A stretch of DNA of 12,748 nucleotides from positions 1-12,748 of the forward strand of contig JAITJC010000010.1 in NCBI GenBank assembly GCA_031279125.1. Reading direction: 5' to 3'. Position numbers and translations under genes: made by a program. Positions 1-12,748 of this stretch are shown one piece after another. This DNA comes from Oscillospiraceae bacterium. Its GTDB lineage: Bacteria; Bacillota; Clostridia; Oscillospirales; Oscillospiraceae. Each line of letters starts with the position of its first letter. The first letter of the stretch is position 1. The notes under the pieces are model-generated. The model ran no database searches. It saw nothing but the letters and a program-made list of their open reading frames with translations, and was not told the DNA's origin.

Positions 1-2481
1 ACTTGGACCCAGAACGGTAAGTTCCTTGTCGGGGAATACCTCGCCGAGACCGTTATCGATGAGTTCGTTACCGAGAAAAAGTGGTCCGGTGGCGATCTCG
101 CCCTCGCTTATGAGTGGGACGATTTTGTCGAGGTTTGGATCAATGGTGTGGAGTACCAGCTCCCGTCGTCTTCTTCGTTCAATGTCACGGGGATCGGCTA
201 TGTGACCGAGACTTCTCCCGCTATCAAGCGCGGCAGCACGGTCAGCATCTTCCCGGAGATCGGTCTCAAGGTTCAGCTCTTCGATTCCGGCGAGGTTTAT
301 GAGGATACGTCTATCAAAAAATACGCCGTCGACAACGGCAAGATAGGCAAAATCGTCATCACCTATGAGCACCTCGCCGAGGTCACAAAGGTCGACAGCG
401 CGCGCGGCACCATAGATCTCAAGTTCTGGCACTACGCTGACCCCACCGCCGCCGCCGCCGCGACCATCACCACATACGAAATCACGGATTATCCCACCGA
501 CGAGACCTTCGCGCTCAAAGATTACGTCGTCGTCACACTCCAGGAAGGCTACACGCGCGGCTATCCCGGCAGTTACTGGGATGACAGTAACCAAAATAAC
601 ACCGTTGACTCCGGCGAAATTAAGTACGACGGCACCATCCTCGCCGCCGCTGTGCTTCGTGTCGCGCCCGTGGAACAGGTTTCCGTCAAGGCGGCGAGCT
701 ACACGCGCGGCGTGAACGCCGGTTCTTCGACGTCGAACTATAAGACTACGCTCGCCACGCTCACAACCGACACGTCGGACAAATACATCTTCGACTCCTT
801 CTACCGCTTCGGCGTCGGAGACACGCCGAACTTCGACGGCTCGGCGCTCCTCATCCTCGATTCCAACGGGCGCGTCATCGGCTTTACGGGCGATGTCGCA
901 GGCCCCGCCGCGCTGAAATATGTCTACGTTGAGGACATTGAAGTGCCGCAGTACAGCCTCGGCACGCCGCGCGTCCGCGCCAGCGCGTACTATCCCCTCA
1001 CCGGGGAGACGAAAGTAATCGACCTGCCTGTGAAATACAAGGATGCGAACACCGGCTACGTCGTGACGATCAACAGCGTCGATCTGGCGGTGGCGAGCAT
1101 CGATGTGGGCAACCAGTACCTCGTGAGCCAAGGCACCAGTTGCAAAGGGCTGCTCGGCTGGTACTGGTACACCTCCGCCGACGATGCCTCGACCATTACC
1201 CTCCGCAGCAGTCTCACCGGCAATGAGGGCGTTCTCGGTACAAAAGCGGGCTCGATAAAAACCGTGCCGGGAGACGACACCGTCTACGGCGTGGGGACAA
1301 TCACCGCCGGATCATTCTTCGTGCGGACCAACCCGATTGAGGCGGGCTTCTCGGTAGCCGGGAACGCCTTCGGCCCTATCTACACTGACTCCAAGACGCT
1401 CTTCTATTACAGAGGCGTGAAATACACCGGCTACACGGCATTCCCGTGGAACGCGTCCACGGCGGCGGGCGGTTCCGCCCTCGCGGTACGCGGCTCCGAC
1501 AAGATCATCGACGCGCTCTTTATCTACAAGGGCGAAAACATTGACGCCGCGCTCACCACGTTCGCAATCATCAAGGCCATGCCCTACGACTGGGTGACGA
1601 ACGACAGCAAGATTGATTACACCGTAGTTGGCTCGACCGCCGCCATCACGAACGCCGGCGTCTACGAACTGACGGACACGCAGATCCCGACATACAGCAT
1701 CGGCGATATCGTGCTCGTCAAGCAGACCTCCGAAGGCTGGGAGATCGACGACTACATCTCCGCGAACAACACTTACACCGACGGGAAGTACATCGTGGAC
1801 TTCTCCCACCCCGACTACGAGTATTTCACCGTGCCTGACGCGACCGTCAAGGCCGCCATCTGGACGAACTCCATCCCCTACCTTGACGGCGTGGCCGCCT
1901 TAGACAACCAGAGCGGCGGGACGCTCAAGCCCAAGACAAAACCCGACATCGGGGACGAGGTTCGCATCATCATAGGGACGCCCGTAGGGGCTTTCTCTCC
2001 CGCGGCACTCGCCGTCGTCATCGTGAAATACAGCGACCAAGTTAAACAAGACGCGGCGGCAGCTTATGCGGCGGCGGCCGGTGGCACGACTGACAGCAAC
2101 ACGTGGGTTATCAGCAATATCGGCACTCCCGGACTGAGCGATGTTATTATTGACGTCGCCATAGGAGGCACCCCCATCAGCGCCACCGGCTCATTTAGCT
2201 GGTCGAGCTCGGGCGCACAGATAACCGCCGTAATCAAGAATGACGTGACATACGGGGGCGGCTACTTCGCCACCCAAGGCAACATAAAGCAGATCGTGAC
2301 GAACAATTCCGCAATCCGCGTCGTCGTGAACTCCGTCAACGCATATGACGGAGACAGCAACAGCACTCTGGACGACGACGGAGACGAAAAAATAGATATC
2401 GGCGTGACCATCACGGATACCGTGAACGGATCGTCTAAAACAATCACAATCAGCTTGCGGGGGATGAATATAAGCGCGTAG
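1..2481 (+). CDS. Large secreted/cell-surface protein, C-terminal 826 codons (5'-truncated by window edge); function unknown
   Basis: Frame 1 is open from nt 1 (TWTQNGKFLVGEYL...), so the GTG at 148 in the ORF track is probably internal. The stop is TAG at 2479-2481. The protein is Thr/Gly/Val/Asp-rich and Cys-poor, with Ala runs (PTAAAAATITTYE; DAAAAYAAAAGG) and a beta-strand-like C-terminus (IDIGVTITDTVNGSSKTITISL). It strongly prefers C-ending codons and is followed by a strong terminator. I recognised no catalytic motif. An S-layer or adhesin role is a guess. Confidence 0.75.
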   Translation, partial: TWTQNGKFLVGEYLAETVIDEFVTEKKWSGGDLALAYEWDDFVEVWINGVEYQLPSSSSFNVTGIGYVTETSPAIKRGSTVSIFPEIGLKVQLFDSGEVYEDTSIKKYAVDNGKIGKIVITYEHLAEVTKVDSARGTIDLKFWHYADPTAAAAATITTYEITDYPTDETFALKDYVVVTLQEGYTRGYPGSYWDDSNQNNTVDSGEIKYDGTILAAAVLRVAPVEQVSVKAASYTRGVNAGSSTSNYKTTLATLTTDTSDKYIFDSFYRFGVGDTPNFDGSALLILDSNGRVIGFTGDVAGPAALKYVYVEDIEVPQYSLGTPRVRASAYYPLTGETKVIDLPVKYKDANTGYVVTINSVDLAVASIDVGNQYLVSQGTSCKGLLGWYWYTSADDASTITLRSSLTGNEGVLGTKAGSIKTVPGDDTVYGVGTITAGSFFVRTNPIEAGFSVAGNAFGPIYTDSKTLFYYRGVKYTGYTAFPWNASTAAGGSALAVRGSDKIIDALFIYKGENIDAALTTFAIIKAMPYDWVTNDSKIDYTVVGSTAAITNAGVYELTDTQIPTYSIGDIVLVKQTSEGWEIDDYISANNTYTDGKYIVDFSHPDYEYFTVPDATVKAAIWTNSIPYLDGVAALDNQSGGTLKPKTKPDIGDEVRIIIGTPVGAFSPAALAVVIVKYSDQVKQDAAAAYAAAAGGTTDSNTWVISNIGTPGLSDVIIDVAIGGTPISATGSFSWSSSGAQITAVIKNDVTYGGGYFATQGNIKQIVTNNSAIRVVVNSVNAYDGDSNSTLDDDGDEKIDIGVTITDTVNGSSKTITISLRGMNISA

Positions 2482-2504
2482 CCCCCCCGCTTTTGCTTGA
2501 CGCA

Positions 2505-2544
2505 AAACAACCCCCCGCCCGGAAACGGGCGGGGGGTTGTTTGT
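2505..2544 (+). terminator. Rho-independent terminator of the upstream surface-protein gene
   Basis: A perfect 17-bp stem pairs 2505-2521 (AAACAACCCCCCGCCCG) with 2526-2542 (CGGGCGGGGGGTTGTTT) around a GAAA loop (2522-2525). The T-rich tail TTGTTTGT partly lies within the 3' arm. The A-tract on the 5' side gives it a bidirectional look. Confidence 0.85.
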
Positions 2545-2567
2545 AAAACGCGGGAAAAATTTTATTG

Positions 2568-2596
2568 TTGACAACAGCGCCGGAACAGCATATACT
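2568..2596 (+). promoter_or_regulatory. Sigma-A/sigma-70-type promoter for the three-gene operon
   Basis: TTGACA lies at 2568-2573 and TATACT at 2591-2596, separated by an exact 17-nt spacer. It sits directly after the terminator and about 12-27 nt upstream of the candidate start codons. A G-rich SD-like element GGGGGAAGGTG follows at 2610-2620. Confidence 0.6.
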
Positions 2597-2607
2597 CTTT
2601 ATTCTGA

Positions 2608-4542
2608 TTGGGGGAAGGTGTTGTGTTTGAGCCGGACACGGCGGTTAAGCCGAAACGTCTGATGGTCTACGCGCCCGATGCCGCAAGCGACATCTGCGCC
2701 AGCATGTTGAAAGATCGCAAGGTCATACTGTACGGCGCCGACGGCGTCGGGAGGACGGAACTGATGGTTCGCGTCCTTGATCGTTTGTTGCGTATGGGGA
2801 AAATGCGCGCCGGCGATTATCGCGTCCTCAACTACGTCGAAAGCTTCACGGAGACCGCCAAAGCCAACGCGCCGCCGGAGATTGCCGAAGAGAACGCCAT
2901 AAGCACCCTGTATGACCTGTTCGCGCGCGAGGGCAAATTTGTTTTCGCCGATAACATAGACAAGACAGTGCTTGAAGACTCGTCCCTGTGCTATCTGCTC
3001 GGGCTCAAAAACGTCCTGATCACGGCATCGGGCGCCGACGTTCTGGGCAAACACGACGGCGATTTCGTGAAGTACGAAATCGCGCTCCCGGACGAGCGGG
3101 AGTGCCGTCATCTGTTCGACGACCCCGACTCAACGGGCGGCGCGTACAATCCGTTCAGGCGTTTCGCCGCCCGCTCCAAAGACGAAAAGGAATTCGGCGA
3201 CTATGTTTTTGATACACTTTACCGGAAAACCGCCGGACACCCGATGGCTCTGCGCTTGGCTGATAAATTCGGCGAGGCGATGGGATACTATAATATAATA
3301 GACAGGATAAGCGAACTCGACATCGATATGCGGGGCGCGATATCTTCGCGTGAGGCGTTCGGGAAGATAATCGACCTGTATCTCGAATCGGACGCCTGCG
3401 ACGACGAGCAGCGGCGGATTTTGCGCCTTTTCTCACTTATGCCTTACCGTATGCTCCGCGAGGCCGATATCGCTTCGGTCACGGGCGGGAAATGCTCCTG
3501 CGCTTTGTCGAGGCTGGCCTCGGTATCGCTTATCCAAAGCCACCAAAGCCGCGGCGGCGGCATGTATTACGCCATCCATCCGATAATCGCGGAGGCGATC
3601 CGCGCGAACGGCATCGACATTGAGCTCTGCCGCGAGATTATTTACGATAAGCTCCAGACAAAGCTGTCGGAATTGCCGGGGGATGGGCTTTGCCGCTACG
3701 CGTGGATGACGCAGCTCGTCAAGTCGGCGGCGATGTACTATATGCACGACGCGCTCGGGCGGACGTATGACGATTCGCTCAGGGCGGCGCTGTTTTCGTG
3801 CCTCGGGACCATTTTTCGCAAACGCGGGAGCGCCGATAAGAACCATTACGAACGCGCCAAGACCTGGCTCAACCGCGCGCTCGACATACAAGAGAGGCTC
3901 GCGGAGGGTAAAACGCCCCCCCGCGCCCGGTTCGACCTCGCGGTCACGCTTTGCAATCTCGGGGAAATATACCTCGACGGCGAGCCCGAACGCGCGCGGG
4001 ACTTGCAGGAGTGGGCGCTGGAGCTGAAACGCGGGATACGCGACCCGAGCATCGAGAACATTGCGCTGCATGTCGCGAAAAGCTGCGCCATACTTGCTGA
4101 AACCCTGCGCAGATTATATCGCAGGACAGAGGACGACGAGGATTTGAAAAAGGCGTTCAAGCTACAAGCGGAAGCCGTTTCCCTGCTGGAGCGGTACGGC
4201 GGCGCGGAGGCGGGTATCGAACTGGCGGACATATATGAGAAGAAAGCCGAAGAGGCGCGTGACAACGGCAATATGAAACTCGCCATATATCATCAGCTTA
4301 CGGCGCGCGACTGCGTTATGAGGACTCTGGAAGCGGCTGAACCCGAAAAACCCGTAACCGCGGAACGCGCGAAACCGAGGAACGCCGGCTTTGAATGTGC
4401 CGTTCTGAATCACAGGCTGGTGAATGTGTGCGAACAGCTGTCCGATTTTTACTTTGACGCGGACGAATACGGACTGGCGCGTTTTTACAAGGAATTCGTT
4501 AACCGTGAACGCTCGGGAAGGGAGCGCGTGTATGGCGTCTGA
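2608..4542 (+). CDS. NB-ARC-like STAND NTPase-fold protein with C-terminal TPR-like repeats; Walker A/B degenerate (predicted pseudo-ATPase sensor/scaffold)
   Basis: The order of motifs matches AP-ATPase/NB-ARC. The P-loop-like ILYGADGVGRTEL lies at nt 2734-2757, with Arg49 (AGG 2752-2754) where the Walker A Lys belongs. The Walker B-like KFVFADNID lies at 2938-2961 and reads D-N instead of D-D/E. A 'TTR'-like VLITASG lies at 3013-3033 and a 'GxP/GLPLAL'-like TAGHPMALRLA at 3235-3252. Winged-helix-like motifs are LRLFSLMP, LASVSLIQ and YYAIHPIIAEAIR (MHD-like position). Helical TPR-like repeats span about 3770-4330 (e.g. YERAKTWLNRALDIQERL, DLAVTLCNLGEIYLDGEPERARDLQEWALEL). The start is uncertain: TTG 2608 is the longest ORF and GTG 2623 sits just after the SD-like element. 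The stop is TGA at 4540-4542. There is no N-terminal effector domain. Confidence 0.65.
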   Translation: MGEGVVFEPDTAVKPKRLMVYAPDAASDICASMLKDRKVILYGADGVGRTELMVRVLDRLLRMGKMRAGDYRVLNYVESFTETAKANAPPEIAEENAISTLYDLFAREGKFVFADNIDKTVLEDSSLCYLLGLKNVLITASGADVLGKHDGDFVKYEIALPDERECRHLFDDPDSTGGAYNPFRRFAARSKDEKEFGDYVFDTLYRKTAGHPMALRLADKFGEAMGYYNIIDRISELDIDMRGAISSREAFGKIIDLYLESDACDDEQRRILRLFSLMPYRMLREADIASVTGGKCSCALSRLASVSLIQSHQSRGGGMYYAIHPIIAEAIRANGIDIELCREIIYDKLQTKLSELPGDGLCRYAWMTQLVKSAAMYYMHDALGRTYDDSLRAALFSCLGTIFRKRGSADKNHYERAKTWLNRALDIQERLAEGKTPPRARFDLAVTLCNLGEIYLDGEPERARDLQEWALELKRGIRDPSIENIALHVAKSCAILAETLRRLYRRTEDDEDLKKAFKLQAEAVSLLERYGGAEAGIELADIYEKKAEEARDNGNMKLAIYHQLTARDCVMRTLEAAEPEKPVTAERAKPRNAGFECAVLNHRLVNVCEQLSDFYFDADEYGLARFYKEFVNRERSGRERVYGV

Positions 4543-6745
4543 CAAGTCTTACAAACAAATCCTGAGAATACAGGCCGGAAAGGAGTCTTCACTGTACCTT
4601 CCGGAAGGGGAGGAGTTGGAAGAAAGCCTTTTTTGGCCGTTGTTCCAACGCGCGAACGTACAATTAAATGAAATAATCGCCGCGTCGACGGACTATATCG
4701 GAAAGCATCCCGTTCAGCCGTCCTCCGTCCGGGATGGGGCGTATGAATCGCCGCTCGCAATCCCTCGCGTTCCTCACATTGCGAGCTATGCCGCGAACGT
4801 GATTGCCTTTTGCGGGGATCGCGGGCAGGGCAAAAGCTCCGCGATGCTGACTTACGCGAAGTATCTGAAAGCATTCTCGGAGAAGCCTTCGGAATACCGC
4901 GCCCCCGGCACGAATCCGCGCGGGGCGTCGTATTGCGTCCTCGACCGCATAAATCCGCAGCAATTGGAAGAGCATGAGGACATCCTGACAGAGGTCATGT
5001 CGATGATGCTTCAAAAACTGGAGCGAAAGATTGAACGCGACAATCTTTCCCCGGACTATTACGACGAGTTTTTGACGCTGCTGCGCGAGTGCGTGATGCT
5101 CATAAACTCGAAAAAATCTAAAAAAGACGTTGTGTCAGAACGCTTTGAGGACGAAATAACGGGGTTGCTTCACCGCGCCAGAAGCGCCGATCTGCGTTCG
5201 ATTTTCGCGGAGCTTGTCCATCTGTTTTTACTGTTGTTCTTCGGCAGAAAGACCGACGATAATGGCGCGGCGCTCGTCGTGCCTATCGACGACGTGGATC
5301 TCGACGTAAAGCGCGCGTACTCTGTGGCGCAGGAAATCCGCAAATATCTGGCGGTGCCGCGCGTTGTGGTGCTGATGGCTGTAAAGCCCGAACAGCTGCA
5401 GTGGGTCGTCAAGCAGCAGTACATAAGCGAGTGTATGGACATTCTGAAGTATGACAAAGAATTTGACGAGCATACGATCCGGGATATGGCCGCTAAGTAT
5501 ATGGACAAGTTTCTGCCCGACAGGCGCCGGGTGTATCTTTTAGATTTGTCTGTTTCCGGCACGGACATAACCTTTGAATATTTGGACGGCGACGGCAAAA
5601 CGCTTCTTTCTGCGCACGACGGCGTGGGTTACCGCAAAGCCGTCTGCGACTACGTATATCGTAAGACGGGGGTGAGGTTCTCTCACGCGGAAGAGCACTC
5701 GTCGTCGATTGTGCCGCGCAATATGCGGGATCTCGTCGAGTTCATGGGCTTTTTACATTCGATGAAGGACTTTCAAGCGGACGCGCCCGGACAGGGCGGG
5801 GCGGATACCGGTAAAAAGCCTGACAGAGCCGTGTGGCTATCGAACCTTCAGCGCTTGGAGGATTACATCACGAATTCCTACGCGCCTCGGCATTTGCGAA
5901 GCGTCGATCTGGATACGGTCAAGCGTATCGCGAAAGAGCCGCGTTTTGAAAAACACGAAATCGCGATAAGAGGGCTGATTAAGGTCTCTGAAAGCATCGT
6001 TGCCGACTCGGACGGGTTCAAACTGTGGCGAATAGCCTCAGGTGAAGCCGACCGTTCCGTATGGCAGGTGGCATCCAACGCGGCGTATTGTGAAAGCGTG
6101 CTTTGCAATGATTACATGTACTGTCTGTCGTTTGCCGTTTGCGCGCTGTACACTATTGAGGCGCTGCGGTTGCTGATAGCCGGTGAACGCCCGGCTTTTG
6201 ACGATTACAAGGCTTTTGTCGGAAAGTTTGATTTTAAAACGACATTCGCCGAAACGTCGACGAACTCGAATATGGTCGCGGAGATGTTTGAAGATTTGTT
6301 CGGCGAACGATTGGTTGATGCGGTGCGCGGCAATATTGAGAATAACGTGTTTTCGGACAGTACATTGCTGCTGTGCAACACGAATTTCGTGCTGGAATTG
6401 TTCCGCGAGCTTCAGAAAGAAATAAAATCGCTCAGCGATTTGGCTGAGGAGCCCGGTAAACTCGTTGACGAGATAAGATGCCGAGCAAAGAAAATCGCAA
6501 AGGACTTTGCGTATCCAAGGGATGAAAAAGAAAGCGGAGATCATATCTTCGACAGGCTGTTCGGCGACAAGGCAAAAGCATCCTTAGAGGACATACGGAA
6601 GAAAGCGCAGAAAGCGAAAGAGCAGAAAGCGAAGGAAGAAGGGGTGTCGCAGGCAGCTAAGGATGAGGTCGAGAAAAAGATAAAAACTCAGCAATCGGAA
6701 AATGTTTCAGGAGGCACAGAATCCCCGGGCGGCTCTCGGGAATGA
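4532..6745 (+). CDS. KAP-family P-loop NTPase (737 aa), positional equivalent of a RADAR RdrA-type ATPase
   Basis: ATG 4532 is preceded by AAGGGAG (4518-4524, 7-nt spacer) and overlaps the upstream stop by 11 nt. The ORF-track start at 4424 lies inside the previous gene and is unlikely. Walker A is intact as FCGDRGQGKSS (nt 4814-4837, Lys101). About 150 residues later comes a KAP-style Walker B block, ALVVPIDDVDLDVKRAYSVAQEIRKYLAVPRVVVLMAVKPEQLQWVVKQQY (from nt 5273, Asp253/254). This corresponds to the KAP consensus 'IDDLDR...vvfvla.d.e.l'. AAKYMDKFLPDRRRVYL follows it. The long insertion between Walker A and B is a KAP hallmark. The C-terminus is a Lys/Glu-rich low-complexity tail. Confidence 0.72.
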   Translation: MASDKSYKQILRIQAGKESSLYLPEGEELEESLFWPLFQRANVQLNEIIAASTDYIGKHPVQPSSVRDGAYESPLAIPRVPHIASYAANVIAFCGDRGQGKSSAMLTYAKYLKAFSEKPSEYRAPGTNPRGASYCVLDRINPQQLEEHEDILTEVMSMMLQKLERKIERDNLSPDYYDEFLTLLRECVMLINSKKSKKDVVSERFEDEITGLLHRARSADLRSIFAELVHLFLLLFFGRKTDDNGAALVVPIDDVDLDVKRAYSVAQEIRKYLAVPRVVVLMAVKPEQLQWVVKQQYISECMDILKYDKEFDEHTIRDMAAKYMDKFLPDRRRVYLLDLSVSGTDITFEYLDGDGKTLLSAHDGVGYRKAVCDYVYRKTGVRFSHAEEHSSSIVPRNMRDLVEFMGFLHSMKDFQADAPGQGGADTGKKPDRAVWLSNLQRLEDYITNSYAPRHLRSVDLDTVKRIAKEPRFEKHEIAIRGLIKVSESIVADSDGFKLWRIASGEADRSVWQVASNAAYCESVLCNDYMYCLSFAVCALYTIEALRLLIAGERPAFDDYKAFVGKFDFKTTFAETSTNSNMVAEMFEDLFGERLVDAVRGNIENNVFSDSTLLLCNTNFVLELFRELQKEIKSLSDLAEEPGKLVDEIRCRAKKIAKDFAYPRDEKESGDHIFDRLFGDKAKASLEDIRKKAQKAKEQKAKEEGVSQAAKDEVEKKIKTQQSENVSGGTESPGGSRE
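6607..6636 (+). repeat. Tandem 15-nt direct repeat inside the KE-rich tail of the KAP NTPase
   Basis: GCAGAAAGCGAAAGA (6607-6621) is followed directly by GCAGAAAGCGAAGGA (6622-6636), a 14/15 match. The pair encodes AQKAKEQKAKE. Confidence 0.8.
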
Positions 6746-6751
6746 GGCGTA

Positions 6752-9394
6752 ATGGGCGTACGGCGGAATAATCTGTTCGCTTATTTCAGGCGCGCGTCGG
6801 CGCCGGAGGCGTACAAATATCTCATGCTCCTTCTGCCCGGCGGGACGTCCTTTCCCGAATACGCGGCCGATAAAGAATATCTGACGTACAAGGGCGCGCC
6901 GTTCCGCCTTTTCCGCGAGTGGGCGCGCCGGGACGCCGCCCCGCTGACCACGGATTCGGAGCTTGCGACTTATCATCAGCGCGCCGAAGAGGATATGCGG
7001 GCGGAGAACGGGGACGGAACGCTGTTTCAGCTCCTGCTCGATTACGCGAGGCACAATCTGCGCTTTGACGACGGAACCCCGATGGTGAGGCACGACGATT
7101 TGCTCGGCTGGCAGGATATTACGACGCTGCTGGGGCAGGATTTGCTTGTATGCGCCTTTTTGGCGAAAAAGGACACGACAGGCACGCCCCGCGTATACGA
7201 TTTCACCTGGCCGGCGATTATCCCGAGCGACAACGCCGCGCTTCGCCGCGTGCTTGAAAAAGGGCTCGCCGAGAATCACGCGCATCTTTTCGCCGCGGCT
7301 CAGTATTTTGATTTGACGTGGAGCGCGCTGACGAACTTTTATGAGGAGATCGACGGCATCGCCGCGAAAATCACGGAAAATCTCAACGACGATCCGCAGG
7401 ATCTGTCCGCGAAGGACTGGCGGCTGTGGCTCCGGCGCGCCGCGCTTCTGCGCTGCGCGCTTTTCGGCGGGCCGGCGGGGCGGGACGCGGGGTATGGTCT
7501 GCTGCGGAGCGAGCTCAAAGCCCCCGATGCCGCGCGCGAATATCCGAACCGCATAGGGATGCTCCGGAATAAGTTCGGCTTCAGGTTCCCGGAATACAAT
7601 CAGCCGTACGATTACGCGTTTACGGCCTCGCTCGCGCGGGATAATATCGGGCATCCGAACCGCGCCCTCGCGGGGGAGCGGCATTTCCTCTATATGTGCT
7701 TCCGGGGAGTTTTCACCGGCGCGTTCGGCGGCGCGCAGCGCCAGATGTTCTATTTATATCTGCTGATAAAGTCCCGGTTTCGGGGAGAGCTCGTGCACTC
7801 CAACCGGCGCGCCGGCTTCGACAACTTCGCGCGATTTCACAATCGCAACGCCATCATTCCCGATAATTCGATGTACGGCGGGGAGCGGATATGCCTCGCA
7901 ATCAATTCCACGTTGCGGGACGGGAGCATAAAATCGCTTGAGCTGCGGGTCTCCCCGCGCGCGAAGGCGTCCGAAAACATTATAAACCTGGAAAAAATCG
8001 TGAGCGCCCAAGACAGCTTAGGCCGTTCGGGCAAGCGGCGCGGCAGCCCGTTTAACGTCCGCCCGGCGAACGGCGCGCCGGTTCCGAAGAATCCGGAGCA
8101 AGAATTCTTTTTCGTATATCATCTGCCGAAGGGCAAAGAGACGCCCCCGAAGCTTTCCGACACACTCGGCGGAGGGCTTTGCCTCACGCCGCGCAACTGC
8201 CGCGAGCGCTCCGCGAGCCGCGACAAGGTGCTCGCAATCGCCGAAATGCTGAATAGGTACAGGCGCGCATGGACGTGGATACGCGGGATTGACGGTTGCT
8301 CGGCGGAAATAGGCTGCCGCCCGGAGGTCATGGCGCACGCCATACGCTTTATCTCGAATTTCGCGCCGAACCCTCCGGTAAAGAGCGTCCTTTTCGTGGA
8401 AAAGCGCCGCCCGCCGCGAATAGGTAAGACGTTTCACGCCGGGGAGGATTTCCTCGACCTCGTTGACGGTCTCCGCGCGGTTGACGAGGCCATGCTGTTT
8501 TTAAATCTCGGGCGCGGGGACAGACTGGGGCACGCCGTCGCGCTCGGGCTTGACGCGGAGGAATACTACAGGCGCAAAGCGTCAAAAATCACGCTGCGGA
8601 AGCAGGACACTCTCGACAACCTCACGTGGATGCTGTGCCGCTCGGCGGAGCTTGGCGTGCGGGTCAAGCAGGATCTGGACAGCCGCCTGCGAGGCATCGC
8701 CGGGCGCATAGCGCAGGAGCTTTACGGCGGCACGGAAATGTCTCCGGAGAAGTTCGACCTCCACAATTATTTCCGCGCTTGGAAGCTCCGGGGGGACGAC
8801 CCTTACGCCTATTTTTCCGGCGGTTACAAAAGCGCGGAAAAACAAAACCGGGGCATTTTGAAGCACGCGCAGGAGTATATGGACTACGCGCTGAACGGCG
8901 ACGGCGAGATAACGTTCTGCCGGAACGACGAGGTCGCGGCAAGGCTCTGCAAGGCGTACCATTTTTTCGGCAAGGTTCGGACAGAGGGAAACAAAATCTG
9001 CTCGTTCGCCGTAGCCGAGGATTTCGTCGCGCTGGCGCGGGAGCTTCAGGCGGCCATGCGCCGCCGCGTATCCGACAAGGATATAGCGGTGGAGACGAAC
9101 CCGACATCAAACAAGCTGATTTCCACGTTCGGCAGGTATGACAAGCACCCCATATTCACGTTTTACAGCCGGCATCTTGACAAGGCGGCAGGGCCGCAGC
9201 TTTACGTGTCCGTGAATACGGACGACCAGGGGGTGTTTTCCACGTCGCTCAGGAATGAATACGCCCTTCTGAGCCGCGCTCTGGAGCTCGTCCCGGACGC
9301 CGGCGGCGCGGAGCGCTATTCCCGTCCGCAAATCCGCGACTGGATCGACGACGTCCGCGAGATGGGGATGTCGCAGACATTCCCCGCCACGTAA
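6752..9394 (+). CDS. Giant adenosine/AMP deaminase-fold protein (880 aa), RdrB-like candidate nucleotide deaminase effector
   Basis: All amidohydrolase/ADA signature elements are present in the right order. The HxH motif is in LAENHAHLF (His176/His178, nt 7277-7285). HAGE is in KTFHAGEDF (His562/Glu565, nt 8435-8446). The GH motif is in RLGHAVALG (His594, nt 8531-8533). VSVNTDDQGVF (Asp824/825, nt 9212-9226) matches the ADA/AMPD signature [SA]-[LIVM]-[NGS]-[STA]-D-D-P except for P to Q. The ATG at 6752 lies 6 nt after the upstream stop, with a GAGG at 6744-6747. The stop is TAA at 9392-9394. Confidence 0.85.
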   Translation: MGVRRNNLFAYFRRASAPEAYKYLMLLLPGGTSFPEYAADKEYLTYKGAPFRLFREWARRDAAPLTTDSELATYHQRAEEDMRAENGDGTLFQLLLDYARHNLRFDDGTPMVRHDDLLGWQDITTLLGQDLLVCAFLAKKDTTGTPRVYDFTWPAIIPSDNAALRRVLEKGLAENHAHLFAAAQYFDLTWSALTNFYEEIDGIAAKITENLNDDPQDLSAKDWRLWLRRAALLRCALFGGPAGRDAGYGLLRSELKAPDAAREYPNRIGMLRNKFGFRFPEYNQPYDYAFTASLARDNIGHPNRALAGERHFLYMCFRGVFTGAFGGAQRQMFYLYLLIKSRFRGELVHSNRRAGFDNFARFHNRNAIIPDNSMYGGERICLAINSTLRDGSIKSLELRVSPRAKASENIINLEKIVSAQDSLGRSGKRRGSPFNVRPANGAPVPKNPEQEFFFVYHLPKGKETPPKLSDTLGGGLCLTPRNCRERSASRDKVLAIAEMLNRYRRAWTWIRGIDGCSAEIGCRPEVMAHAIRFISNFAPNPPVKSVLFVEKRRPPRIGKTFHAGEDFLDLVDGLRAVDEAMLFLNLGRGDRLGHAVALGLDAEEYYRRKASKITLRKQDTLDNLTWMLCRSAELGVRVKQDLDSRLRGIAGRIAQELYGGTEMSPEKFDLHNYFRAWKLRGDDPYAYFSGGYKSAEKQNRGILKHAQEYMDYALNGDGEITFCRNDEVAARLCKAYHFFGKVRTEGNKICSFAVAEDFVALARELQAAMRRRVSDKDIAVETNPTSNKLISTFGRYDKHPIFTFYSRHLDKAAGPQLYVSVNTDDQGVFSTSLRNEYALLSRALELVPDAGGAERYSRPQIRDWIDDVREMGMSQTFPAT

Positions 9395-9445
9395 TTGTTA
9401 CACACACAATCGGCATAGCTTACACGCGGGGGAGGCGGGAGACGG

Positions 9446-10609
9446 ATGCGGGAACCGAGGAAAAACGGAAGCGGCGCGGGCGGCGACGGCACAGGCGGAT
9501 GGATAGCGACTATTGTGATGCTCCTTCTGTTCTGGCCGGTCGGGCTGATAATGCTGATAAACAGGCTTCACACCGCCGCGCGCACCGCATACGTCCGGCC
9601 CCCCGTCCGCGCCCCGGGAAAGACGGAGGGCGCGAAGGACGCGGGTGAACGGAAGCCGGGGGCGGGGGAACCCGCGCCCGTGACGGCGTCTGCTCGCCTT
9701 GAAAAGGAACTGCGGACCGCCAAGAGATATTCGCGCTTGCTCGCCGTCGCGGCGGCGCTCGCGCTGGCGGGAGGGGGGTATACGCTCGCGTCCTCCGTCC
9801 GCGAGCTCGCGATGGGCGGGGCGTGGCTGCGCGATATGCTCACCGGCGCGTTTTACGGCGTCGGCGGGGCGGTCGTCCTCGGCGCGCGCGGGCTTTTGCC
9901 GGGCAGAGCGCGTCTGCGCCGCCGCTATCTCGCAAAGCTCGGCGCGAGCCGCGTCATGCGCGTTTCGGAATTCGCGTCCGCGCTCGGCAGGAGCGAAAGG
10001 AACGTCCGGCGGGAGCTTCAGGCGATGATAGACGACGGGTATTTCGGCGGCGGGGCGTACATAGATTCGCGTCTCGGCGCGCTCGTGCTCAACGCCTCGG
10101 ATGTCCCCGCCGCGGAGGCGGGCGCGGACACGGCGCCCGCCTCCGCGGCGCCCCGGCGGACGGAACTTTCGGAGTACGACCGCGTTCTGACCGAACTGAG
10201 AAGCTTGAACGAAAAAATATCCGACCCGGGGATATCGCGTAAAATCGAGCGCGTGGAATCCGCCTCGGCGAAAATTTTCGCCGCCGTGCGGGAGAATCCG
10301 GACAAGCTGCCGCAGATACGCCGTTTTATGAGCTATTACCTCCCGACGGCGCTGAAACTCCTGCGCTCCTACGCCACGCTGGAGCGGCAGGGCATCCGGG
10401 GGGAGAACATCACCTCGGCGAAGGAGAGCATAGACCGCGTGCTCGGGACGCTGGCGGCGGGTTTCGAGCGCCAGCTTGACAGGCTGTTCCGCTCGGATGT
10501 CATCGACATAAGCTCTGATATAGACGTGCTTGAGGGTATGCTGGCGCGCGACGGGCTATCGGAGGCCTCGCCGTTCAGAAGCCGGACATCCTCCGGGGAG
10601 ATAGTATAA
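9446..10609 (+). CDS. Membrane protein with wHTH-like segment and XpaC-like (5-bromo-4-chloroindolyl phosphate hydrolysis family, PF10112-like) C-terminal helical domain
   Basis: GGAGG at 9431-9435 lies upstream of ATG 9446. Hydrophobic segments are WIATIVMLLLFWPVGLIMLI, LLAVAAALALAGGGYTL and AFYGVGGAVVLGARGLL. An HTH-like stretch reads MRVSEFASALGRSERNVRRELQAMIDDGYF. The C-terminal LPQIRRFMSYYLPTALKLLRSYATLERQG resembles, from memory, the conserved YYLP..LKLL..Y core of the XpaC family. The gene is very GC-rich compared with the upstream operon. Confidence 0.5.
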   Translation: MREPRKNGSGAGGDGTGGWIATIVMLLLFWPVGLIMLINRLHTAARTAYVRPPVRAPGKTEGAKDAGERKPGAGEPAPVTASARLEKELRTAKRYSRLLAVAAALALAGGGYTLASSVRELAMGGAWLRDMLTGAFYGVGGAVVLGARGLLPGRARLRRRYLAKLGASRVMRVSEFASALGRSERNVRRELQAMIDDGYFGGGAYIDSRLGALVLNASDVPAAEAGADTAPASAAPRRTELSEYDRVLTELRSLNEKISDPGISRKIERVESASAKIFAAVRENPDKLPQIRRFMSYYLPTALKLLRSYATLERQGIRGENITSAKESIDRVLGTLAAGFERQLDRLFRSDVIDISSDIDVLEGMLARDGLSEASPFRSRTSSGEIV

Positions 10610-10623
10610 TTTTATAGCATGCC

Positions 10624-11082
10624 TTAAAGCGCGGAAAACCGGGCGGCAAGGTACCAGACGGCGCCGAGAACGGCGGACGACGTCACCCCGAAGACGAGCA
10701 CAGGCCCCGCGATCACGAACATCTTGGCCGCGGTGCCCGTAATAAAGCCCTCGCTTTTGAACTCGATTGCCGCCGCCGCTATGGAATTGGCGAAGCCCGT
10801 AACCGGCACGAGCGTCCCCGCGCCGGCGTGCCTCGCGAGTCTGTCGTATACGTGCAGGGCGGTCAGCAGGGCGCCGAGGAACACGAGGCTCACGCTCATC
10901 GCCGAGCGCGAGGTCTCCTCGTCAAGGCCGAGCCGCCTGTACGCGAAAAAAATCGCCTGCCCCGCGCAGCAGAGCAGGCCTCCCGTCACAAAAGCCATGA
11001 CCATATTGCGAGGCGCGCGAGATTTCGGCGCGAGTTTCGCGGCGCGTTCCGCGTATTCTTTTTTCGATATGCTCATTTCCAC
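10624..11082 (-). CDS. spoVAC: Stage V sporulation protein AC (SpoVAC/SpoVAEB family membrane protein)
   Basis: The 152-aa product has the typical SpoVAC size and motifs: FVTGGLLCCAGQAIF, GAGTLVPVTGFANSIAAAAIEFKSEGF and GTAAKMFVIAGPVLVFG. The start is GTG at 11082, with GGGAGGA (11095-11089) 6 nt upstream. An in-frame ATG at 11076 is an alternative start. Confidence 0.85.
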   Translation of the reverse strand: MEMSISKKEYAERAAKLAPKSRAPRNMVMAFVTGGLLCCAGQAIFFAYRRLGLDEETSRSAMSVSLVFLGALLTALHVYDRLARHAGAGTLVPVTGFANSIAAAAIEFKSEGFITGTAAKMFVIAGPVLVFGVTSSAVLGAVWYLAARFSAL

Positions 11083-11085
11083 AGA

Positions 11086-11150
11086 AAATCCTCCCGCGGG
11101 CGGCCGCCCGGATTTTTTATGTCTGTAGGATAACCGGAAAGGGAGGATTT
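11086..11150 (-). promoter_or_regulatory. Inverted repeat able to pair an anti-SD with the spoVAC Shine-Dalgarno; encloses a GC palindrome with a T-run
   Basis: The arms are a perfect 10-bp inverted repeat: 11086-11095 (AAATCCTCCC on +) and 11141-11150 (GGGAGGATTT on +), separated by 45 nt. On the - strand mRNA this places AAAUCCUCCC upstream of the spoVAC SD GGGAGGAUUU. Inside lies the 14-nt palindrome CGGGCGGCCGCCCG (11097-11110), followed on the + strand by GATTTTTT (11111-11118). That arrangement looks like a + strand intrinsic terminator. Confidence 0.4.
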
Positions 11151-11164
11151 ATGACTGCCGATTC

Positions 11165-12748
11165 TCAGTATATATCGATCATAAGCGTCGATCTGCCGGC
11201 GCGGGTTTCGAGCGCGAACGAAACCTCAATGTCGAACAGCGAGTTGTAATAGACCGTATCGGCGCCCTCCCACGGGGCGTCCGCCTCCGCCCGGACGCCA
11301 TCCTCGCCGTACCGGGCGAAGCCGTATTCCTCCAGCCGCTTGCCGTAGCCCGCGATTAAAGCCTCGGCATCCTTGCCCGTAATATCGTACACGACGCTGA
11401 GCGTCCCCGCGAACTCCGTCCTGCGGGACGGCTCCATCCCGGCGTAGTCGCCGAAGTCCGGAACGGGGAAATAGCCCTCGTACAGCTTATGTTTTTCGGG
11501 GTACTCGCCGAGCGGGTACGCCTTGTCGCGGGAAATGGAGCTTATCGCGCCTATGGGCATCGCGAGGTTCAAACTCTGCCCGCCGCTCATCCCGGCGCTC
11601 GTGATCCCGATGACGCGCCCGGCGGCGTCGAGCAGGGCGCCGCCGCTGCTTCCGGCTGAAATCGCCGCGTCGATTTGAATATAGCGCACGCCGTCCAGTT
11701 CCCGCTTCGCCGTGGATACGATACCGCGCGAGAACGAATTTATAAGCCCTATCGGGTTGCCGATCGTGAACGCCTCCGCGCCCGTCTTCGGCTCGTAATC
11801 CCCGACCTCAAGCGTCGGGAAGCTATCGCCGCCATCGCCGACTTGGATCAAGGCGCAGTCGGCGAGCATATCGTAGCCGTAAATGCCCGTGATCCCGTAC
11901 TTCTCGCCCGTTGAAAGCGTCGCCTCCGCGCGCTCCGCGCCCGCTATAACGTGGCAGTTCGTGACCGCAAGGCCGCCCTCCCCGATGAAAAAGCCGCTGC
12001 CCTGCTTCACGGACTCCTCGCCCTCAAAGACCTCTATGTAAAATACGGCGGGGGCGCATTGCTCATATATCTGCTCCGCCGTCGGCGCGCCCGCCTTTTG
12101 GATCATGACGCGCCGCGCGGGATCCGCCGCGCGCAGAACCGCCGCCGCCGCCTCCGCGCGCGTGACGGGCATATTCGGATAGAACTCCCCTTCGGCGCCG
12201 CCGCCCGTCACTATTCCGGCGCGATACAGCGCGTAGACCGCCCCGCCGTAAGAATACCGCTCCGCGACATCGGGCACAGCCCCGTCCGGAACGTCGTTCA
12301 CGGGCGTCACGGCCTCCTCCGGCAACGCGCGGGCGAGGATTTTCGCGAAGTCGGAACGCGCCGCGCGAGCCTCATAATTTGAGTACTCGTCCCGCCCGAT
12401 TATGCCGTAGGCCACGGCGCTGTCCGCGTAAACGTCGTACCAGGTTCCGCCGCCGGGCGAGACGGGCTTGCCCGTTTCGTATACAGAGCGCAGGTTGGCG
12501 GCGAGCTTCACGCTGTCGGCAATCGTCAGATAGCCGCCGGGGTTGAAAGCGCCGTCCCCGTCGCCGTCTATGAGTCCCAGCTCGAAACAGCCGGCAACGC
12601 CCTCTGAAAACCAGTCGGAAGCCCGGACATCCGTGAAAAGCCCGTCCCTGTAATCCCGCGAGGGGGTGAAATTCGACAGCGACGCCGCCAGGGCGGCGCC
12701 CGACGCGAGCGAAACGCATATAAGAACCGCGAGTATCCGTTTTTTCAT
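11165..12748 (-). CDS. Secreted SLH-domain trypsin-like serine protease (S1C/HtrA-like fold) with uncharacterised C-terminal domain
   Basis: The ATG sits exactly at the window edge (12748-12746), followed by a signal peptide, MKKRILAVLICVSLASGAALA. Three SLH-like repeats follow (FTDVRASDWFSEGVAGCFELGLIDGDGDGAFNPGGYLT; WYDVYADSAVAYGII; VPDVAERYSYGGAVYALYRAGIVTGGGAEGEFYPNMPVTRAEAAAAV). The catalytic triad contexts are LAVTNCHVI (His), DCALIQV (Asp) and SAGSSGGALLD (Ser). The last ~110 aa have no motif I recognise. The stop is TGA at 11167-11165. Confidence 0.85.
   Translation of the reverse strand: MKKRILAVLICVSLASGAALAASLSNFTPSRDYRDGLFTDVRASDWFSEGVAGCFELGLIDGDGDGAFNPGGYLTIADSVKLAANLRSVYETGKPVSPGGGTWYDVYADSAVAYGIIGRDEYSNYEARAARSDFAKILARALPEEAVTPVNDVPDGAVPDVAERYSYGGAVYALYRAGIVTGGGAEGEFYPNMPVTRAEAAAAVLRAADPARRVMIQKAGAPTAEQIYEQCAPAVFYIEVFEGEESVKQGSGFFIGEGGLAVTNCHVIAGAERAEATLSTGEKYGITGIYGYDMLADCALIQVGDGGDSFPTLEVGDYEPKTGAEAFTIGNPIGLINSFSRGIVSTAKRELDGVRYIQIDAAISAGSSGGALLDAAGRVIGITSAGMSGGQSLNLAMPIGAISSISRDKAYPLGEYPEKHKLYEGYFPVPDFGDYAGMEPSRRTEFAGTLSVVYDITGKDAEALIAGYGKRLEEYGFARYGEDGVRAEADAPWEGADTVYYNSLFDIEVSFALETRAGRSTLMIDIY

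Follow-up and report, generated by a model that had tools for sequence, protein, structure and literature searches.

A STAND-TPR gene with an altered nucleotide site heads a divergent RADAR operon in an Oscillospiraceae genome

How might a bacterial STAND protein take part in defence if it has lost the lysine of its P-loop and carries no effector domain? This question is raised by the second gene in a 12,748-nt stretch of an Oscillospiraceae metagenome-assembled genome (assembly GCA_031279125.1, contig JAITJC010000010.1, positions 1 to 12,748 of the forward strand), which we refer to as the window. The window holds five complete large open reading frames (ORFs) on the plus strand and one that runs off its end on the minus strand, and NCBI labels their products solely as 'hypothetical protein' and 'tetratricopeptide repeat protein'. 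We find that the gene encodes an NB-ARC-type STAND protein with a tetratricopeptide repeat (TPR) solenoid, and that it opens a three-gene operon in which homologues of rdrA and rdrB, the genes of the RADAR defence system, follow. Both components are of known kinds; what is new is their combination and the conserved changes in the catalytic site of the STAND protein. The operon consists of the following genes.

2623 to 4542, plus strand: effector-less STAND (NB-ARC-type) and TPR gene, 639 aa (the mechanical ORF runs from TTG 2608, 2608 to 4542).
4532 to 6745, plus strand: rdrA-like gene for an AAA+/KAP-type ATPase, 737 aa, starting at ATG 4532.
6752 to 9394, plus strand: rdrB-like adenosine deaminase gene, 880 aa, with NCBIfam, PADLOC and PDB matches.

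The real start of the STAND gene is most likely GTG 2623, and we adopted it because it is preceded by a Shine-Dalgarno-like GGGGGAAGG at 2610-2618, because the JGI gene call (P0001, 639 aa) begins there, and because the ATG of the orthologue P0002 aligns there. Residues are numbered from this codon, so that the Arg49 of a first-pass annotation of this DNA becomes Arg44 here (the earlier numbering is higher by 5).

Direct scans of the protein against Pfam, NCBIfam and PADLOC gave TPR matches only, with no direct NB-ARC match in Pfam at E ≤ 0.1, and phmmer found no match among PDB sequences; the STAND assignment was therefore made through intermediate sequences. An exhaustive HMMER profile search, in which the N-terminal 345 residues of the window protein and its orthologue were compared with 1.84 billion representative proteins, returned 16 proteins: the query, P0003 (E 1.6e-51) and 14 others (P0004-P0017; E 3e-7 to 9e-4) that serve as the outgroup below. 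All 14 carry GxGGxGKT, and each of the nine scanned against Pfam has TPR and/or NB-ARC domains, with NB-ARC (PF00931) above the gathering score in seven of the nine. When aligned by hhalign with these NB-ARC-type relatives, the protein gave a probability of 100 (E 4.7e-44, 559 columns). For the 17-sequence family, which comprises the window protein P0001, its orthologue P0002, P0003 and the outgroup, MAFFT and hhalign paired GADGVGRT with GMGGIGKT, FADN with IDN, VLITAS with VVITAR or IIITSR, GHPMAL with GHPLAL, and IHP with MHP. Judged from these alignments, we hold with high confidence that the motif positions are homologous and not chance look-alikes. In particular, GVGRT falls on the P-loop GIGKT in the profile alignment that the first-pass annotation had proposed as a check, and the STAND assignment holds.

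Structure prediction agrees with this assignment. An AlphaFold2 model built on only two aligned sequences was too poor to use (pLDDT 54.6), whereas the 17-sequence alignment gave a confident one (pLDDT 83.7, pTM 0.80), in which a beta-alpha-beta nucleotide-binding domain (NBD) is followed by a helical domain, then a winged helix and a long solenoid of helices. Foldseek against the PDB ranked CED-4, tomato NRC2, EfAvs5/AVAST5, Avs3, Apaf-1 and ZAR1 at the top (E 9e-8 to 7e-5) and the TPR proteins KLC, LGN and Rap next; the global TM-scores of the top matches are low (0.17-0.37), as expected because these are multi-domain proteins in different conformations. We conclude with high confidence that the gene encodes an NB-ARC-type STAND NTPase, composed of NBD, helical domain, winged helix and TPR solenoid, without an effector, as the earlier description of an NB-ARC/TPR STAND protein had it. 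The P-loop begins at residue 38 with about 37 residues ahead of it, and in the model residues 11-38 are already part of the NBD, as its opening strand-helix-strand unit. No effector or adaptor domain was detected with Pfam, PADLOC or NCBIfam, which upholds the earlier claim that an N-terminal effector is lacking, and no DNA-binding domain is present according to Pfam and the model. The TPR solenoid is presumed to be the ligand-sensing domain. The landmarks of the protein are placed as follows.

2734 to 2757, plus strand: Walker A motif or P-loop, GADGVGRT, in which Arg44 (AGG, 2752-2754) replaces the canonical Lys.
2935 to 2979, plus strand: Walker B motif KFVFADN (2935-2955) and IDKTVLED; Asp110 is invariant, Asn111 nearly invariant, and Glu118-Asp119 conserved in the subfamily.
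3013 to 3033, plus strand: sensor-1 strand VLITASG, with Ser136 at the position of the outgroup's invariant Arg (TSR/TAR).
3235 to 3252, plus strand: GHPMAL, the GLPL equivalent in the helical domain, aligning on GHPLAL; His206 is nearly invariant.
3421 to 3444, plus strand: winged-helix LRLFSLMP, read directly.
3574 to 3582, plus strand: IHP, the MHD equivalent in the winged-helix domain, aligning on MHP; His319 is invariant in 17 of 17.
3685 to 4539, plus strand: C-terminal TPR-like alpha-solenoid, about residues 355-639, matching Pfam TPR_12 and TPR_10 and all-helical in the AlphaFold2 model.

The family alignment separates what is unusual in this protein from what is common to its relatives. 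In the column of Arg44, which the first-pass annotation had correctly singled out and which aligns on the GKT of relatives, the 15 other family members have Lys, and only two sequences, the window protein and its orthologue P0002 (P-loop GTDGAGRT), have Arg. The change from Lys to Arg appears to be a young one within the lineage, because the next relative, P0003 (32% identity), has the canonical P-loop GPSGCGKT. The Asp-Asn pair of the Walker B motif had likewise been taken as a selective loss of catalytic residues, a claim that the comparison does not support: Asn follows the Walker B Asp in at least 90% of the 17 family sequences, among them 13 of the 14 outgroup proteins, all of which keep GKT. 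Since it is shared across a subfamily whose outgroup members retain both GKT and the sensor-1 Arg, this pair is best read as an ancestral trait of the NB-ARC subfamily and not as a loss in this protein. A conserved Glu-Asp pair lies 7-8 residues past the Walker B motif, giving the subfamily motif hhhIDNhxKTxxED.

A second replacement had gone unremarked. All 14 outgroup proteins have the Walker A Lys, the MHD-type His and the sensor-1 Arg, whereas the last of these is replaced in all three members of the clade, by Ser136 in P0001 (TAS), Thr in P0002 (TAT) and Ala in P0003 (SAA). Thus, of the landmarks that had been described as intact, GHPMAL, LRLFSLMP and IHP were located as stated but VLITASG is without its arginine. 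The likely order of events, as far as the alignment tells, is that the sensor-1 Arg was lost first and that the change from Lys to Arg followed in the lineage that stands ahead of rdrA. G38, G41, G43, T45, D110, L125 and H319 are invariant over the 17 sequences, and Asn111, Asp119 and His206 nearly so. Because the Gly residues, Thr45, Asp110 and His319 are conserved, the most economical reading is that the NBD is probably impaired in hydrolysis but still binds nucleotide, which fits better than a nucleotide-free pseudo-ATPase. The proposal of a pseudo-ATPase serving as sensor or scaffold therefore stands as regards the lost Walker A Lys, but not as regards the rest of the pocket, which is conserved and probably still holds a nucleotide.

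The family is very small. A word-indexed homologue search returned the window protein itself and one orthologue only, P0002 on contig L001 (653 aa, 55-56% identity over the full length), and scans of genome and metagenome contigs with the STAND alignment found no relative; in all, three members (P0001, P0002 and P0003) are known among about 15 billion proteins. L001 comes from JGI sample 3300042606, and the contig of P0003 from JGI sample 3300042643. Between P0001 and P0002 the Nei-Gojobori ratio of nonsynonymous to synonymous substitution rates (dN/dS) is 0.19 overall, 0.12 in the NBD, 0.13 in the helical and winged-helix domains and 0.28 in the TPR region, with dS saturated. The TPR end is thus the fastest-evolving part (0.275 vs 0.12-0.13), as expected for a ligand-recognition domain. 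Whether orthologues keep the Walker A replacement had been named as a point to check, and they do: the only orthologue has Arg as well, encoded by AGA in L001 and by AGG in the window. The view that the change is not strain-specific decay is therefore supported, both by the retention of Arg under another codon in this orthologue and by the purifying selection acting on the NBD. Straight after the stop of P0003 (L002:3164-3234) there is a near-consensus promoter-like sequence, TTGACA, 17 nt, TATAAT, because of which whatever follows P0003 is probably transcribed separately.

What, then, are the genes that follow the STAND gene? The first-pass annotation had described a KAP NTPase and a deaminase, and such genes are present, but they had not been recognised as RdrA and RdrB. 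The window RdrA matches the RdrA models of NCBIfam (E 5.7e-16) and PADLOC (E 2e-8), and the window RdrB those for RdrB (NCBIfam E 2.3e-42, PADLOC E 1.5e-24) as well as the solved E. coli RdrB (8fnv, 8fnw, 8hr7, 8hrc; E 3.8e-19). RdrA has a canonical Walker A (GDRGQGKSS) and Walker B (IDDVD), with G98, G100, K101, D253 and D254 invariant in a 33-sequence alignment, and RdrB aligns its HAGEDF, GDRLGH, PTSN and DDQGVF with the HxGEDF, GDRLGH, TSN and DDxGxF of the E. coli protein. Homologues of the window RdrA, 42 in number, share 25-33% identity with it; a metagenome scan with the RdrA pair alignment found nothing. For comparison we examined 85 other RADAR loci, made up of 80 loci in GTDB genomes and five distinct metagenomic contexts of RdrA homologues in the protein collection, which stand for six loci because two are near-duplicates. 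An RdrB homologue is encoded in 75 of the 80 GTDB loci, immediately downstream in 74, the five without it being truncated contigs or broken ORFs, and in all five of the distinct contexts. By homology and motifs the downstream pair is a RADAR, and we call it divergent because neither protein comes near the equivalog cut-off of its NCBIfam model (58 vs 600 bits for RdrA, 145 vs 800 bits for RdrB). RdrA proteins of other loci share at most 31% identity with this RdrA. No RdrC or RdrD match appeared among the PADLOC results (whether PADLOC holds such models was not checked).

The STAND gene is closely tied to this pair. Its stop and the start of rdrA overlap by 11 nt (…GTGTATGGCGTCTGA…), rdrB starts 6 nt downstream of the rdrA stop, and a scan of the window found neither a terminator nor a strong promoter between the genes. 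Two sites precede the operon.

2505 to 2542, no strand assigned: terminator-like hairpin, intrinsic and bidirectional, with a G+C-rich stem of about 16 bp, an A-tract before and a T-tract after it, read from the sequence.
2568 to 2596, plus strand: sigma-70-type promoter-like site TTGACA-17-TATACT, the top match in the window at 11 of 12 positions, by consensus match only.

The hairpin, whose minus-strand core was listed at 2529-2514 by the terminator scan, lies between the upstream surface-protein gene and the operon. The same arrangement recurs on L001, where STAND, rdrA and rdrB follow in the same order, the 11-nt overlap is found again, and a strong terminator and promoter-like sites stand upstream of the STAND gene. 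We have high confidence in the operon structure STAND-rdrA-rdrB, in which the STAND gene comes first and is predicted to be translationally coupled to rdrA. The functional link to the downstream genes that had been suggested is thus plausible, given that gene order, overlap and the terminator-promoter pair are common to both loci. None of the 85 other RADAR loci has a STAND partner, and no ORF in them matches the STAND profiles; weak NBD-profile matches in L033 and L085 were rejected as an AbiEii/ABC-type ATPase and a Clp ATPase. P0004 (L006), a distant relative of the STAND protein, is not encoded beside RADAR. The association of STAND with RADAR is thus confined to a very small lineage, of which two loci are known.

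The RdrA proteins of these two loci differ from the others as well. After I542 of the window protein, the last column that aligns well, they have 196 and 165 residues, compared with 288-463 (median 371) in 31 other RdrAs, and at 737 and 707 aa they are the shortest found (others 789-1065 aa). BLASTP of the window RdrA against a typical RdrA aligns residues 8-547 only. The length difference lies past the ATPase core (window about 6158-6742), where the tail is Lys/Glu/Ala-rich and of low complexity.

We lean, a little more than evenly, towards the reading that the STAND protein is a hydrolysis-independent sensor or adaptor that has been added to RADAR. The TPR domain would bind a phage-derived protein or peptide, and binding would switch the STAND protein through a conformational change and/or oligomerisation. 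A nucleotide would probably still be bound as a cofactor, and hydrolysis would probably be dispensable, given the Arg in place of the Walker A Lys and the loss of the sensor-1 Arg. Since the STAND protein has no effector of its own, it would pass the signal on by touching the RdrA ring directly, and this contact would then license RdrB to deaminate ATP and dATP. Sensing would thereby have moved from the C-terminal lobe of RdrA to a dedicated NLR-like partner. Whether the two loci represent a third architectural class of RADAR, in which a separate, effector-less and non-hydrolysing NLR-like protein has taken over sensing from the RdrA lobe, is a more tentative matter; we regard this as possible and put it below an even chance.

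Several points count against a hydrolysis-independent sensor. We infer both its nucleotide binding and hydrolysis, from residues only, and its contact with RdrA. Arg44 might still support some catalysis, and the subfamily-wide Asp-Asn Walker B implies that the catalytic chemistry of the clade was already atypical. P0003 is followed by a promoter-like site and by no overlapping gene, on a contig (L002) that ends 70 nt after its stop. Both loci are on short metagenomic contigs of uncultured bacteria, so that synteny is known from two cases. Finally, the shorter C-terminus of RdrA could be unrelated to the STAND partner.

It is also possible, if unlikely, that the STAND-TPR protein restrains or builds the complex, either as an antitoxin-like brake that holds RdrA-RdrB inactive until infection releases it, or as an assembly factor or chaperone of a large complex. 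A restraining partner is plausible given that RdrB by itself can deaminate ATP in vitro, and that growth curves were used to compare cells expressing it with those expressing the active-site mutant E501A (PMC9994260). The promoter-proximal place and translational coupling of the gene fit a stoichiometric partner, and a hydrolysis-dead NBD suits a static role such as that of a scaffold. However, a brake is not generally needed, because all 85 of the other RADAR loci do without such a partner; the TPR end evolves faster than the NBD, as expected when a variable ligand is tracked; and the architecture resembles that of known sensor STANDs.

Independence of the STAND gene from RADAR, whether as a regulator or as a defence gene that recruits an unlinked effector and merely shares the transcript, is distinctly unlikely. 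Defence genes do cluster in islands, distant relatives with short N-termini occur outside RADAR contexts (P0004 in L006, for example), and the context of P0003 is not visible, as its contig ends before any neighbouring gene. Against this, the 11-nt overlap and the gene order have been kept at 55% protein identity and saturated synonymous divergence, with no terminator or strong promoter between the genes; RdrA is co-modified in exactly these two loci; and the STAND protein has no DNA-binding or effector domain.

A further reading, improbable in our judgement, is that the NBD remains a working NTPase or nucleotide switch in which Arg44 stands in for Lys and Glu118-Asp119 aid catalysis. The conservation of G38, G41, G43, T45, D110 and H319 and the strong constraint on the NBD, the most constrained part of the protein, would suit such a switch, as would the occurrence of the Asp-Asn Walker B and the downstream Glu-Asp in presumably active relatives with GKT and the sensor-1 Arg. 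However, the sensor-1 Arg is missing too, and both it and the Lys are invariant in 14 of 14 outgroup proteins. Replacement of the Walker A Lys by Arg in P-loop NTPases and NLRs is moreover the classical hydrolysis-null, loss-of-function change. Lastly, a decaying relic or an Arg produced by a sequencing or assembly error, to which the extreme rarity of the family and the window's contig as the only source of the P0001 sequence might point, is effectively refuted: the ORFs of 639 and 653 aa are intact in two independent samples, the dN/dS of 0.12-0.28 together with the AGG and AGA codons for the same Arg speaks against a pseudogene or a sequencing error, and the AlphaFold2 model is confident.

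The remaining genes of the window were considered in turn. Gene 1 (148-2481) encodes a 777-aa Thr/Ser/Gly/Val-rich protein, ends at the bidirectional terminator and has no Pfam, PADLOC or NCBIfam match; its product looks like a secreted or surface protein. It was rejected as a RADAR component, having no homologue in 86 other RADAR loci and being set apart from the operon by the terminator. Gene 5 (9446-10609), a predicted membrane protein of 387 aa with PF10112 ('5-bromo-4-chloroindolyl phosphate hydrolysis protein'), begins 51 nt past rdrB, from which no terminator separates it, differs in G+C content (0.65-0.70 vs 0.50-0.62) and contains a perfect 18-nt inverted repeat at 10108-10150. It too was rejected, on account of the same lack of homologues in 86 other loci and its higher G+C. 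The product of a partial gene at 11165-12748 on the minus strand combines SLH and trypsin-like protease domains; its protease part matches PADLOC RT-Protease_XI models (E 1e-16), which probably reflects no more than the generic protease domain. An Rfam scan and a repeat search of the window gave nothing relevant.

Other genes recur beside RADAR elsewhere. In four loci from Oscillibacter, Oscillospiraceae and Lachnospiraceae genomes (L022:3842-5896, L031:3724-5886, L049:374-2386 and L068:3907-5925), a different conserved gene of about 670-720 aa immediately precedes rdrA in the same orientation. The encoded proteins are mutually homologous (24-67% identity) and share a phosphoribosyltransferase-like motif (ILLADDMIYHGRG / LLVDDIMLHGRG), and they have neither a Pfam match nor a P-loop; the gene looks to be a further upstream accessory of RADAR that is as yet undescribed. 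The rdrB ORF of four distinct Acutalibacteraceae RADAR loci is followed on the same strand, no more than about 85 nt past its end, by the start of a gene of about 320 aa whose product has the Pfam domains TIR (CAP12-PCTIR_TIR) and prok_STING (L003:13325-14266, which equals L015:11136-12092; L062:11109-12068; L028:11345-12304; L063:4954-5895), and no cyclase gene is evident among the listed genes of L003. One RADAR lineage has RdrA split into ORFs of 651 aa and 179 aa ahead of rdrB (L007:414-2942, L008:411-2939), with an HEPN_AbiV gene after rdrB in L007. Finally, in a metagenome-assembled genome of Longibaculum (L009:6922-15353) a phage-type integrase precedes rdrA-rdrB and a 791-aa protein with a cytidine/dCMP deaminase domain follows them, so that two deaminases stand side by side.

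How RADAR senses infection is an acknowledged open question, and a presumed TPR sensor that is separately encoded, together with a shortened RdrA C-terminus, allows the sensor hypothesis to be put to the test. For the TPR sensors of Avs proteins, screens for triggers and prediction of complexes are already successful (PMC13581612), and both could be applied here. The window protein is a natural bacterial STAND that has stayed under purifying selection after losing its Walker A Lys and sensor-1 Arg, and as such it bears on whether NLR-like switches need hydrolysis. The reach of these considerations is limited by a family of three among about 15 billion proteins, no carrier of which has been cultured. 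If the proposed mechanism were true, the locus would be a bacterial counterpart of the sensor/helper NLR pairs of plants, in which a TPR protein senses a phage protein and switches on the RdrA ring and RdrB without using ATP itself. It would also offer the first direct route to the trigger of a RADAR system, and would show that a STAND sensor can serve as an add-on module for unrelated multi-protein effectors.

The closest sequence relatives are P0004-P0017 (15-22% identity), which share the Asp-Asn, GHP and MHP motifs and the TPR tails, several of them with short N-termini. All of them, however, keep GKT and the sensor-1 Arg, some have N-terminal domains (SMEK_N in P0008, for example), and P0004, the only one whose context was inspected, is not linked to RADAR.

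The output of RADAR is the deamination of ATP and dATP to ITP and dITP, and its RdrC is a small membrane protein, not a STAND; the system is reportedly that of Gao et al. 2020. It consists of the ATPase RdrA and the adenosine deaminase RdrB, both studied by cryo-EM, its trigger is unknown, and the alpha-helical C-terminal domain of RdrA has been hypothesised to be the sensor (PMC9994260). RdrD, a putative membrane pore former and the only auxiliary RADAR protein in the literature examined (PMC11482910), is not a STAND either, and a literature search found no mention of RdrA together with TPR in a relevant context. The window agrees with RADAR in having homologues of RdrA and RdrB, in the canonical order of rdrA then rdrB and in its Walker and deaminase motifs, but differs in the upstream soluble STAND-TPR gene and in a C-terminal region of RdrA of about half the usual length. 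This extra gene does not fit a two-gene core with an optional membrane RdrD or RdrC.

Avs/AVAST proteins likewise have a STAND core of NBD, helical domain and winged helix followed by a TPR-like sensor, which binds phage proteins directly (PMC13581612), and Avs5 and Avs3 are among the best structural matches of the window protein. It differs from them in having no N-terminal effector, in the replacement of the Walker A Lys and sensor-1 Arg, and in its position inside the operon of another system. The PADLOC Avs models did not match it, the only hit being a weak one to the generic TPR model PDLC01169 (E 0.0027). We do not class it as an Avs member, because it lacks the N-terminal effector; the earlier statement that it is unlike the single-chain Avs/AVAST proteins is borne out by the P-loop at residue 38, the missing effector and the lack of an Avs model match. 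That group offers precedents for STAND action that does not depend on hydrolysis: SeAvs7 is activated by conformational change, not by hydrolysis, and KpAvs8 has degenerate Walker A/B motifs (PMC13581612, the latter in the legend to Extended Data Fig. 11). KpAvs8 is thus akin to the window protein as a bacterial immune STAND with a naturally degenerate NTPase site, which suggests function without ATP hydrolysis. The two were compared by description, and they differ in that Avs families, as described, are single-chain and lose cell death when the effector domain is mutated or deleted (PMC13581612), whereas the window protein has no such domain.

Plants provide a further precedent, in that some NLRs have an absent or degenerate P-loop, as in Pb1 and ADR1-L2 (reviewed in PMC3478704). 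These are eukaryotic, their sensors are leucine-rich repeats and not TPRs, and the partner is another NLR and not an AAA+ ATPase with a deaminase, so the comparison is one of analogy and not of specific orthology. With this difference in mind, the plant proteins and their sensor-helper pairs share with the window protein an NB-ARC domain without a canonical P-loop, set in a multi-protein immune module whose partner executes the response.

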